Made by a program: the position numbers and the translations under genes
Assembly (NCBI GenBank): GCA_018819225.1
Contig: JAHJQN010000004.1
Location: 160,001 to 224,000, forward strand
From: Candidatus Micrarchaeota archaeon
GTDB taxonomy: Archaea > Micrarchaeota > Micrarchaeia > Norongarragalinales > SBBD01
Direction of reading: 5' to 3'
DNA length: 64,000 bases
The notes under the pieces: model-generated
Databases searched by the model: none
Told to the model about the DNA's origin: nothing
Seen by the model: only the letters and a program-made list of their open reading frames with translations
Shown: positions 40,857 through 42,755 of the stretch, piece by piece
How the letters are laid out: each line of letters opens with the position of its first letter
Position numbering within the stretch: the first letter of the stretch is position 1

Positions 40857-40986
40857 AGCCCCCGGCGAGAATCGAACTCGCGACCTCCTGTTTTCTCGCT
40901 CTTGCTTTTTTGGTCGAGCTTTTCTTAAAGAAAAGGTCGGGTGGCAAGGTTACGAGACAGGCGCTCTTCCGCTGAGCTACGGAGGC
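40857..40986 (-). tRNA. tRNA-Thr(CGT) with 58-nt canonical intron (40893-40950)
   Basis: Cloverleaf GCCTCCG/CGGGGGC, anticodon 40954-40952, BHB with CTCG/CGAG helix, U discriminator. Confidence 0.93.
40910..40939 (+). repeat. tRNA-associated hairpin element, copy 1 (inside Thr intron)
   Basis: ttggtcgagcttttcttaaagaaaaggtcg. Confidence 0.8.
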
Positions 40987-41015
40987 ATAAATGTTTTTTC
41001 AAATGCCCATTTCAT

Positions 41016-41078
41016 TTGGCGGAGCTTTTCTTTATAAAAGAAAAGGTCCGCGCTTCCTTCCGCTGAGCTACGGAGGCA
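41016..41078 (+). repeat. Hairpin element copy 2 plus duplicate of tRNA-Thr 5' end
   Basis: ttggcggagcttttctttataaaagaaaaggtccg followed by cttccgctgagctacggaggca (copy of 40966-40987). Confidence 0.8.
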
Positions 41079-41332
41079 ACTTTATTTTTTATGAACCGTT
41101 TGTTTTAAATGGCAATGGGGGGTAGGGGCGACCCGCGTAAGGGGAACTCCCCTTGGAGGGGGTCCTGGGGTGCGGAGGCATTCTGACAACAAAATGCGCA
41201 TTGTTTATGGACGGCTTTTGTTTAAAAAAACGTTGGATACTGGATCCGGGGATGCAACCAGACATTTAATAATATTCAGGCGCTCTTTTCAATCGTATTT
41301 CACGAACGAAATCAAGGGAGGCTGATAAACGG

Positions 41333-41917
41333 ATGCCACACAAATGCGTCAAATGCGGAAAATTGTATCCGAACATGGCGCCAGAGCTCATGAAAGGCTG
41401 CGAATGCACGTCCCGCATCTTCTTGTTCTTGCGCGAAAGCCAAGTCAGCGTCAAGGAGACCATGGAGTTGCTGCAGGAAGAGAGCCAGAAGCTCGTGGAA
41501 GACACGAAAGCCATTCAAGAACTCGCCGAAGCCACGCCCATCACCATAGAAAAAATCGAGCTGCCTTCCGTACCCGTCAAGTCCATGGTGGAACAACAGG
41601 ACGTGCACGGCAAGCCCCACGTCATTCGAGTACAAGAAAAGAAGGATCCTGAAAAAGCCGTGGATGAAATCGAGGAAGCGGACATGGAATCCGATCAAGA
41701 AGATGACACGGACGGGCTCGTGGACGGGGACATGGAGAAAACCGTTTTACCCGTTGACGCGGACGGAGAACCCGTTGAAAACATCACCATCCTGGAAAAG
41801 GGATCGTACGAGCTCAACATCGAGTCACTCATGGCGGGTAACCCGCTCGTCATCCGAACCGAACGCGGAATATTCTACATACGCATTCCGACGCCCGTCA
41901 ACCAAAGGAATCGGTAA
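41333..41917 (+). CDS. Zn-ribbon protein (COG3364/DUF2072, OapC-like)
   Basis: MPHKCVKCG...GCECTSRIF; ENITILEKGSYELNIESLM. Confidence 0.85.
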   Translation: MPHKCVKCGKLYPNMAPELMKGCECTSRIFLFLRESQVSVKETMELLQEESQKLVEDTKAIQELAEATPITIEKIELPSVPVKSMVEQQDVHGKPHVIRVQEKKDPEKAVDEIEEADMESDQEDDTDGLVDGDMEKTVLPVDADGEPVENITILEKGSYELNIESLMAGNPLVIRTERGIFYIRIPTPVNQRNR

Positions 41918-42213
41918 TGGCTATTAACGAGATCGCATCCAAACCGGCTATCGACGTAGCGGAAAGCGTGGCGTTTTCCGGAGCGGACTTGATCATCATC
42001 GCCGGAGTCGTCATTATTCTGGCACTCATCGTCCTCTTTATTTTCCGGCGGTTTCTCATCAACTCCGTCATCGGAATCATCGCCCTCATCGTACTGAATT
42101 ATGCGGGCGTAGAGATTCCGTTGAACGTGGCCACCATTGTCGTCACCGCGATTTTGGGTTTAGTGGGCGTGGCGCTGCTCATCATCCTCAAGCTATCGGG
42201 AATCGCCTTTTAA
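41917..42213 (+). CDS. BofA-like small membrane protein
   Basis: FLINSVIGII...IPLN...AILGLVGV. Confidence 0.75.
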   Translation: MAINEIASKPAIDVAESVAFSGADLIIIAGVVIILALIVLFIFRRFLINSVIGIIALIVLNYAGVEIPLNVATIVVTAILGLVGVALLIILKLSGIAF

Positions 42214-42245
42214 TGGTTCCCGGGACTAATTTTGTTTCCAGGCAA

Positions 42246-42369
42246 GGGCCCGTAAGAGAAACCATCTCCGGGACGCTCAGCTTGGATAGAGCGATTGCCT
42301 CCTAATCACTCGCGGATTGCAAGTGGAGGGGAAAGCAATAGGTCGTGGGTTCGAATCCCACCGGGCCCG
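42246..42369 (+). tRNA. tRNA-Arg(CCT) with two introns (9/10: 42255-42274; 37/38: 42305-42333)
   Basis: GGGCCCG/CGGGCCC acceptor, ATTGC/GCAAT stem, anticodon 42301-42303; BHB at both introns. Confidence 0.88.
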
Positions 42370-42394
42370 CTTAATGCCAGTTCCCGTGGTTTCA

Positions 42395-42446
42395 TTGGTC
42401 GAGTTTCCTTCCCAAGAAAGGTCGTTCAGAATCCCGACCGGGCCCG
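42395..42446 (+). repeat. Hairpin element copy 3 plus duplicate of tRNA-Arg 3' end
   Basis: ttggtcgagtttccttcccaagaaaggtcg then ttcagaatcccgaccgggcccg. Confidence 0.78.
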
Positions 42447-42485
42447 TATATTAATTAAACTTGTTTTCCTGCAACCTATACCATT

Positions 42486-42602
42486 GCGGAGGTCGCATAG
42501 TGGCTATTGCGGCAGCCTGCTATCTTTTTGCAGCGAAGGCTGCGGAAGGTTGGAAAGCTGTTGGCGCTTCGCGCCTCGTGGGTTCGAGTCCCACCCTCCG
42601 CG
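42486..42602 (+). tRNA. tRNA-Ser(GCT) with 33-nt canonical intron (42523-42555)
   Basis: GCGGAGG/CCTCCGC acceptor, long variable arm GGCGC-TTCG, G discriminator, relaxed BHB. Confidence 0.88.
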
Positions 42603-42653
42603 CTCAATAATGCGGTCGTTGGATACCATGGAACATATGGGTAACCGGTTTCT

Positions 42654-42708
42654 TTGGTCGAGCTTTCTTTACAAAGAAAGGTCGTTCGGAATCCTTACCC
42701 TCCGCGCT
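42654..42708 (+). repeat. Hairpin element copy 4 plus duplicate of tRNA-Ser 3' end
   Basis: ttggtcgagctttctttacaaagaaaggtcg then ttcggaatccttaccctccgcgct. Confidence 0.8.
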
Positions 42709-42755
42709 ATTAACAGTTATGGATTGCGCGTAGGTTAATCATACAGGTAAAGCAA

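Follow-up and report, generated by a model that had tools for sequence, protein, structure and literature searches.

A short non-coding hairpin, here called HP1, recurs at the tRNA genes of a 64,000-nucleotide (nt) stretch of a Candidatus Micrarchaeota archaeon genome (assembly GCA_018819225.1, contig JAHJQN010000004.1, forward-strand positions 160,001 to 224,000; hereafter the window), and its placement suggests a protein-free, non-autonomous insertion module of one Micrarchaeota order that duplicates its target and is able to seed introns of the bulge-helix-bulge (BHB) type. We give this reading a probability of about one half. The observations that carry it are that HP1 was gained and lost between relatives, that it is invariably the 3' foot that borders gene-derived sequence, and that a direct target duplication, from 4 nt (16S rRNA) to 20-72 nt (tRNA ends) in length, lies on either side of the insert. 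These come from the source genome (G000; 1.37 Mb, 90%-complete) and from a comparison set of 68 genomes of its order, including ten family relatives of G000.

HP1 is an imperfect hairpin of ~37 nt with a 5' tail (TTCTTTGG), an outer stem of 3-4 bp, a G.G mismatch, a pyrimidine/purine stem of 7-9 bp and a 3' foot reading GGTCG, the whole preceded by a short variable stretch. In an alignment of 19 copies, from which a covariance model was built, 90% of the cells in paired positions were paired, compared to 82% in shuffles (none of 500 shuffles reached the observed value), and the outer stem carried compensatory changes (CG to GC in four copies, plus one G-U, and GC to AU in three). The first-pass annotation of this DNA had pointed to four hairpins, starting with TTGG at 40910, 41016, 42395 and 42654, that share a G.G mismatch, and to a compensatory change (CGGA/TCCG) in the second; the positions and the change were confirmed, the 5' G of the mismatch proved invariant and its partner G present in nearly all copies, and all four belong to one covarying family (E values of 3e-6 to 4e-9, all on the plus strand). 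It had also seen no copy away from tRNAs in the window, and the covariance-model scan of the window indeed found no HP1 beyond these four. The 5' tail is, in most copies, a mirror repeat of the pyrimidine arm, with a T-count that tracks that of the arm (TCTTTT with CTTTTCT, TTCTTT with CTTTCTT). As a pattern of letters this is the signature of a putative intramolecular pyrimidine-purine-pyrimidine triplex, and in that signature HP1 is like the intrastrand-triplex repeats of bacteria, although the mirror tails of window copies 1-3 are imperfect.

Three tRNA genes were recognized in the window with Rfam, namely Thr(CGU), Arg(CCU) and Ser, while ARAGORN reported no tRNA there on account of their heavy interruption; in these genomes, standard tRNA finders fail when faced with stranded tRNA ends and with genes that have several introns. 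The tRNA-Thr(CGU) gene (40857..40986, minus strand, 54 bits) consists of exon 1 (40986-40951), a canonical 58-nt intron (40950-40893) and exon 2 (40892-40857), with boundaries taken from reading of the sequence. HP1 copy 1 (40906..40939, plus strand, E = 4e-8) is antisense to this gene and forms the apical stem of the intron, which folds into a BHB with 3-nt bulges AAC and AAA on either side of a CUCG/CGAG helix, the arrangement of a BHB intron (z = -4.0). The earlier placement of one hairpin inside the Thr intron was thus correct. At this position of the intron, G002 has a related hairpin (HP1b), and G001 and G004 have none.

The other three copies in the window lie 12-47 nt beyond an intact tRNA end and are directly followed by a stranded copy of that end, a layout (tRNA end, spacer, hairpin, partial copy) that had been described for the Thr 5' end and the Arg and Ser 3' ends and that held at all three; we refer to it as a cassette. 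An assembly artefact, which had been named as a possible source of the duplications, is excluded because the layout recurs across independent genomes. At tRNA-Thr, the spacer (40987..41011) includes the A/T-rich sequence found upstream of the working gene, which is partly duplicated, and is followed by HP1 copy 2 with the CGGA/TCCG outer stem (41012..41049, plus strand, E = 3e-6) and by the stranded copy (41050..41090, minus strand), which abuts the hairpin foot and comprises nt 1-26 of the tRNA (41078-41050) and ~12 nt of upstream flank. Over the 41-nt alignment of stranded and working copies, the tRNA part has no mismatch and one 2-nt indel, whereas the flank has five mismatches. An older cassette is stacked behind this one (41117..41181), with a GC-rich hairpin at 41130-41164 and a 9-nt remnant of the Thr 5' end at 41173-41181; the same stack of a GC-hairpin cassette and then an HP1 cassette is present upstream of tRNA-Thr(GGU) in G001 (72% identity).

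The tRNA-Arg(CCU) gene (42246..42369, plus strand), checked against intron-poor orthologues, contains two introns, one of 20 nt at about nt 9/10 and one in the anticodon loop, and the first of these is the reason why the Rfam start is 24 nt late (42270 instead of 42246). Its 3' cassette consists of a spacer (42370..42390, plus strand), HP1 copy 3 (42391..42424, plus strand; a TTTCC variant identical to the copy at C7:14726), and a junction with stranded copy (42425..42446, plus strand) that reads TTCA (42425-42428) and then nt 57 to 73 (GAATCCCGACCGGGCCCG, 42429-42446). The stranded copy is decayed and carries an extra G that breaks the T-stem, and the junction position is the same in the orthologues of G001, G004 and G008. 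An alignment meant to tell whether the spacer is native gave only a 9-nt match to the intergenic region of G002 (p = 0.04). The tRNA-Ser gene, which also has an intron (42486..42602, plus strand, 44 bits), is followed by a spacer (42603..42649, plus strand), by HP1 copy 4 (42650..42684, plus strand, E = 4e-9), which has the top score in the genome, and by a junction and decayed stranded copy (42685..42712, plus strand) that reads TTCG (42685-42688) and then nt 57 to the 3' end plus ~5 nt of trailer, the Ser 3'-end fragment being placed at 42690-42707. A stranded Ser end lies at the same place in G002, behind a degenerate hairpin.

The covariance model returned 23 hits in G000, compared to 0-4 in each of the ten family relatives, and HP1 was found, with a patchy distribution, in 25 of the 68 genomes of the order. 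In G000 there are 18 dispersed copies and one tandem array of 47-nt units. All dispersed copies lie in or beside tRNA or 16S rRNA genes: 13 have a tRNA called by Rfam as their neighbour, four a tRNA gene or tRNA-like 3' end read by eye, and one is within 16S rRNA. With at least 15 of 17 copies near tRNAs (binomial P of ~1e-24 to 1e-30), a chance association with tRNAs is excluded, and the proposed enrichment at tRNAs is therefore strong in G000. By state, 13 of the 18 copies belong to gene-end cassettes, of which nine are at the 3' end of a tRNA and four at the 5' end; two copies are in tRNA introns, one is in the 16S rRNA gene, one is 3 nt from a tRNA 3' end without a duplicate and one is 17 nt upstream of a tRNA. 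The units of the tandem array (C1:268172-268305 and C6:31-164) are identical and consist of HP1 plus TTTGGTTGG; at least six are visible. The array lies upstream of the PCNA gene, with a dihydroorotase-like gene on its other side, and it interrupts the assembly between C1 and C6.

The insert is strictly polar. In all 13 cassettes of G000 the foot faces the stranded copy and the 5' tail faces the working gene, and across the introns of the order the foot directly abuts exon 1 in 12 of 12 antisense copies and lies a few bases from exon 2 in sense copies. The first-pass annotation took the orientation to be independent of tRNA strand, which does not hold, since it is tied to the gene end; all four window copies are on the plus strand because the Thr gene on the minus strand has a 5' cassette and the Arg and Ser genes on the plus strand have 3' cassettes.

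Several comparisons bear on mobility. The same unusual variant (GAGTTTCCTTCCC...) is found at the tRNA-Arg of the window and at the tRNA at C7:14811 (the copy at C7:14726), with nothing else shared between the two places. Comparison of filled and empty alleles was possible in 16S rRNA, where G000 has a 60-nt insert in the conserved 690-loop region, made of an antisense HP1 and 19 nt with AAAA on both sides, at a site that is empty in G010, G005, G006 and G007 (which read GGGGTAAAATCCTGTAATCC). The insert has a local BHB-intron geometry (GAGU/ACUC with A-rich bulges); the energy of its whole fold, like that of a T-loop intron precursor, is not better than that of shuffles (z of about -1.2), so that only the local geometry is informative. 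A different insert of ~55-60 nt with a pyrimidine/purine hairpin occurs in the 16S genes of G006, G007 and G005 (L104, L105 and L106), where it follows GTAGCGAA at a place ~45 nt further downstream than the insert of G000, and small hairpin introns in 16S thus recur in the family.

Duplication lengths of 4, ~12, 20-45 and 72 nt were seen. Those at tRNA ends often run into the flank; the longest, at C7:91715, reaches 72 nt, and in five cassettes no more than 0-12 nt separate the duplicated stretch from the hairpin. The layout is also found outside stable-RNA genes: in G002, G007 and G049, HP1 lies between duplicated 3' and 5' ends of protein genes. The last 12 codons and the stop codon of the G007 gene are present twice (a 39-nt copy), with all seven differences synonymous, including TGA to TAA, and the encoded peptide is also found in six sister genomes. 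The homologous stranded protein end in G003 has decayed, with an in-frame stop and two Leu-to-Met changes. The duplicated gene start in G002 differs by four synonymous codons and one replacement. In three relatives (L052, L056 and L058, in G046, G009 and G006, respectively), HP1 sits in a tRNA 5' leader downstream of a TATA-like box, its foot exactly abutting mature nt +1, without a duplicate. Of the initial proposal of a non-autonomous, tRNA-targeting micro-element that may enlarge introns, what stands is that HP1 is mobile, non-autonomous, associated with tRNAs in G000 and an occupant of introns; it is not exclusive to tRNAs, given its presence at protein-gene ends in relatives.

The orthologue of tRNA-Arg(CCU), read in ten relatives, provides a series of states at a single gene. 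The downstream hairpin is absent in G003; it follows the 3' end directly, without a duplicate, in G006 and G007; cassettes are present in G000, G001, G004 and G008, drawn from three hairpin families (HP1, its relative HP1b, and a GC-rich hairpin); and G002 and G005 have a T-loop intron and no cassette. In the cassettes, the stranded copy always begins at nt 57 of the T-loop (GAATCC), the centre of a TTC|GAA palindrome. The T-loop intron of G005 aligns with the GC-rich 3' trailer hairpin of G007 and G008, with a single 14-nt gap exactly at the proximal tRNA 3' end, and that of G002 ends in TTCGGAGAAAG. As six of the seven genomes of the genus (g4) are without the T-loop intron, the intron is most simply the derived state, and the simplest history suggested by these alignments would lead from a trailer hairpin to a cassette and, with loss of the proximal end, to an intron. 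In G000, the stranded 3' copies are still arranged like the 3' splice site of a T-loop intron: the foot is followed by one base, by four bases that could pair with nt 55-58, by AAU and by the T-stem strand. The pairing is perfect in three of nine, and genuine T-loop introns (L049, L065 and G005) show this arrangement too, which is compatible with change in either direction. At tRNA-Arg(CCG) (C2:102760) and at C1:168120 the distal site looks competent for splicing. Micrarchaeota commonly have T-loop introns, 56% of the tRNA genes of ARMAN-2 are interrupted, and the epsilon-2 EndA of Micrarchaeum cleaves relaxed BHB motifs at 59/60 (PMC3239211).

We hypothesize that these states may be produced by a single process. 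Where the duplication reaches beyond the gene end, the intact end would lie proximal to the hairpin and the other copy would be stranded and left to decay, as may have happened at the Thr 5' end and the Arg and Ser 3' ends of the window. A short duplication inside a tRNA or rRNA gene would leave an insert that survives only where the broad-specificity splicing endonuclease of these archaea removes it as a BHB intron, as may be the case for the 16S insert and for the intron of tRNA-Thr. On losing its proximal gene end, a cassette would become a T-loop intron, with the formerly stranded end now serving as exon 2. Ordinary homologous recombination within the flanking gene would further carry cassettes from one diverged lineage to another, in which case the two copies would differ like alleles and not like a decaying duplicate. 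Strand transfer would be provided by an enzyme acting in trans or by host recombination and repair, and not by an HUH (histidine-hydrophobic-histidine) transposase.

Several points weigh against an insertion module that duplicates its target. Across the tRNA cassettes of G000, mismatches between the two copies number ~11 of 169 positions in the tRNA part and ~33 of 96 in the flanks; a neutrally decaying duplication predicts a ratio of ~1:2 and the one seen is ~1:5, which calls for a foreign working end, for recombinational refresh between lineages or for gene conversion. The stranded tRNA parts are too well conserved for a neutral target duplication, so that the preferred reading needs the assumption of refresh or gene conversion, and their sequences would equally fit a working end borne by the element. 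In G001 and G004, moreover, the copies cease to be identical precisely where the mature tRNA finishes. Irrespective of the hairpin family, the stranded part begins at nt 57 of the tRNA in every 3' cassette, and some feet directly adjoin nt +1 or the 3' terminus of the mature tRNA; the model leaves both regularities unexplained. Our searches yielded no strand-transfer enzyme, and we know of no characterised transposase with target duplications of 4 to 72 nt. The direction from cassette to intron rests on parsimony at one gene in one genus, without a species tree. Finally, no fresh insertion was at hand for comparison: a search of metagenome contigs for related loci with filled and empty alleles at strain level found none, and the flippase-like gene that flanks the locus shares 59% identity with its nearest homologue.

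Some of these points would be met if the hairpin came with a surrogate gene end, that is, if a unit of gene end, spacer and hairpin from another lineage recombined by homology (in a Campbell-type or homology-anchored manner) and displaced the resident end, with no target duplication at all. We consider this unlikely, though it deserves the closest attention among the alternatives. It would account for copies that differ like alleles (the synonymous changes of G007 and the four synonymous codons and one non-synonymous codon of G002), for a tRNA part that is nearly identical next to a diverged flank, for identity that stops at the tRNA end in G001 and G004, and for the resemblance of the G007 stranded end with its TAATGTCA trailer to the working end of G008. 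However, such a unit of 60-130 bp needs its own version for at least 15 tRNAs and several protein genes; the same hairpin variant is found at different tRNAs that share nothing else; the 16S insert has a 4-nt repeat only and no surrogate; the 72-nt duplication at C7:91715 includes a trailer that is not conserved; and homologous transfer of an existing cassette gives the same allelic signature.

A second alternative reverses the order of events: hairpin introns in the T-loop or D-arm would be ancestral, and an intron-less end from another allele would have been patched in, leaving the old exon stranded. The splice-site layout of the stranded 3' copies, with its perfect pairing in three of nine and its counterpart in the L049, L065 and G005 introns, speaks for this, as do the T-loop intron in the orthologous tRNA-Arg of G002 and the frequency of such introns in Micrarchaeota (PMC3239211). 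We nevertheless find bypassed introns improbable, because the identical layout at protein-gene ends goes unexplained, the T-loop intron is missing from all but one of the seven g4 genomes and in G005 corresponds to the 3' trailer sequence of its sisters, and an exact exon copy would have to enter the splice site many times over.

The cassettes might also be solo scars, left when kilobase-sized tyrosine-integrase elements at tRNA ends made att repeats and then lost their interior, with a terminal hairpin remaining. Integration borders classically carry partial duplicates of a tRNA (PMC3293823, PMC9897764), and a fitting enzyme family exists: a patchy, multi-copy family of tyrosine recombinases, ~400-420 aa at full length, is present in 30 of the 68 genomes and adjoins tRNA genes in G000, G001 and G022. 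The G001 copy (C50:57345-58256) abuts the tRNA-Thr(GGU) that bears HP1 cassettes. The sole member in G000 (C2:97226-98143, 306 aa) is truncated, with the catalytic domain starting from residue 29, and the gene overlaps a tRNA gene at its 3' end; these tRNA-adjacent recombinase genes are probably integrated elements. Across the 68 genomes, however, recombinase and HP1 are not associated (both in 13, HP1 only in 12, recombinase only in 17, neither in 26), and the genomes with HP1 only include ones with 11 and 8 copies, for which reason the recombinase was also rejected as the enzyme acting in trans. No full-length element bounded by HP1 was seen, nor any distal tRNA repeat, within the DNA examined, that would bound a full-length element beside the recombinase genes of G000 and G022, the contig in G001 being cut off too early for this comparison. 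With the same layout also given by three unrelated hairpin families, at protein-gene ends and by the 16S insert, an origin from deleted integrative elements seems to us quite remote.

It is more doubtful still that the hairpin is a functional RNA module, serving as a terminator or processing signal of tRNA units, with the partial copy as a decoy or pairing partner. The position of the hairpin directly past gene ends and its T-richness on either strand, the stronger conservation of the stranded copies relative to their flanks, and the fact that in three relatives HP1 abuts tRNA nt +1 in the 5' leader might all be explained by a role in RNA processing. Yet its presence varies at orthologous genes, hairpin families are swapped, the stranded Arg and Ser copies of the window have lost T-stem complementarity, the stranded protein end of G003 has its in-frame stop, and a terminator role explains neither the intron copies nor the 16S copy.

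The mechanism favored in the first-pass annotation, a REP-like (repetitive extragenic palindromic) or IS200/IS605-like element whose HUH (Y1) transposase recognises a guide and an imperfect hairpin, is largely refuted: it matches the imperfect hairpin, the conserved mismatch and 5' flank and the strand asymmetry, but the TnpA/RAYT gene expected by a hairpin was not found, with no PF01797 match in the 90%-complete G000 (the control search matched six of 14 reference genomes) and no TnpB, the hairpins are single instead of left-end/right-end or REPIN (paired REP) arrangements, and long direct duplications flank the insert, which HUH peel-and-paste transposition does not make.

Searches of G000 for serine recombinases and reverse transcriptases likewise found none, DDE families not being among those searched. 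Two further candidates were rejected on the basis of the clustered regularly interspaced short palindromic repeats (CRISPR) of this genome. The array (C2:21-945) contains 13 repeats of 36 nt (GCTTCAATGGAGCCACGGTTTTTCAACCATGGGAAA) unrelated to HP1, and beside it (C2:1111-4636) are a 99-aa open reading frame (ORF) and a 558-aa ORF containing Cas1. The tandem HP1 array, with its identical 47-nt units, is thus not a CRISPR array, and Cas1 was discarded as an HP1 enzyme, its only match belonging to this ordinary CRISPR-Cas locus with an unrelated repeat. An origin of the junctions at restriction sites (TCGA / TTCGAA) was also dismissed, the junctions being unlike simple cut-and-join products.

Among known systems, archaeal integrated elements of the SSV1 and pNOB8 types, and the model for tRNA-Thr of Caldiarchaeum (Sugahara et al. 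2012, PMC3293823), are similar to the HP1 cassettes in that an insert lies between an intact tRNA and a direct repeat of the 5' or 3' portion of that tRNA, and such a repeat on both sides was found for the 13 cassettes of G000. Those elements measure 1.8-20 kb and carry an integrase, whereas HP1 inserts consist of 35-110 non-coding nt with no integrase in them or at their border, the same hairpin is found at at least 15 tRNAs, in a 16S gene and at protein genes in relatives, and the duplication length is not fixed. Kilobase-sized integrated elements leave tRNA fragments (PMC9897764), and the model of Sugahara et al. ties the duplication of a tRNA end to intron gain in the same gene, for one locus and a 1.8-kb element bearing a recombinase (PMC3293823). 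The tRNA introns of Thermoproteales transpose, as related short sequences in the introns of unrelated tRNAs indicate (Fujishima et al. 2010, as reviewed in PMC4090602), and they share with HP1 the canonical and non-canonical positions that permit a BHB; their movement was inferred from intron similarity with no intermediate, whereas HP1 is also found outside genes between duplicated ends, with intermediate states at one orthologous gene.

HP1 is further similar to miniature inverted-repeat transposable elements and to REP repeats and bacterial interspersed mosaic elements, which are short, non-coding, hairpin-forming, lineage-specific and patchy, expand in copy-number bursts and depend on a factor in trans. 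It differs from them in that it has no target-site duplication of fixed length, no cognate transposase that we could find and a strictly polar foot, and in that it inserts into stable-RNA genes that host splicing rescues. With the attC sites of integrons it shares an imperfect hairpin whose mismatch and strand asymmetry could define the strand, a 3'-foot junction that is often G|TT, variable content on the other side and tandem arrays; the HP1 consensus, in contrast, lacks an R-box (RYYYAAC / GTTRRRY), and the cargo is a few dozen bases instead of an ORF. Integrons recombine without duplicating their target. No IntI-type integrase was found in G000, whose sole tyrosine recombinase matches by the catalytic domain only, an IntI-specific insertion not having been examined.

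We found no description in the literature of hairpin-bounded gene-end duplications in DPANN archaea, and a 2026 census of Asgard tRNA genes states of introns that "how they arrive remains open" (bioRxiv 10.64898/2026.10.13.758758). HP1 bears on this open question of the origin of archaeal tRNA introns, as one small repeat family is found in all states, i.e., beside a gene end without duplication, between duplicated ends, in canonical, D-loop and T-loop introns, and in 16S rRNA; and because one orthologous tRNA shows these states among sister species, the birth of an intron becomes directly testable. A wider and more tentative proposal, which we rate well short of even odds, is that hairpin modules are a vehicle of tRNA and rRNA intron gain in archaea, through foot-first, protein-free insertion with target duplication, where a duplication spanning the gene end would give a harmless cassette and loss of the proximal copy a non-canonical BHB intron. 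Such a route to introns by duplication and degeneration would need only host recombination and a broad-specificity splicing endonuclease. The recurrence of junctions at positions defined in RNA (mature ends and splice-site geometry) may leave room for a step at the RNA level.

Other features were noted around these loci. A second hairpin family (HP2; CCGACCTTTTTCAAAAAAGGTCGATCAAAAAGTCGCT) directly follows several tRNA 3' ends in G000 (C7:14777-14810, C7:91750-91800, C1:18788-18821, C1:145560-145600 and C3:46370-46405), and at C7:91715 it was duplicated along with the tRNA end. Between the Thr and Arg loci, the window contains small genes matching OapC (origin-associated protein, PF09845; 41333-41917) and BofA (PF07441; 41917-42213). 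In G001, G002 and most g4 genomes, tRNA-Arg is closely followed by an extra gene, which encodes a protein starting with MD and is missing from G000; in G001 and G002 this gene is thereby placed between tRNA-Arg and tRNA-Ser.

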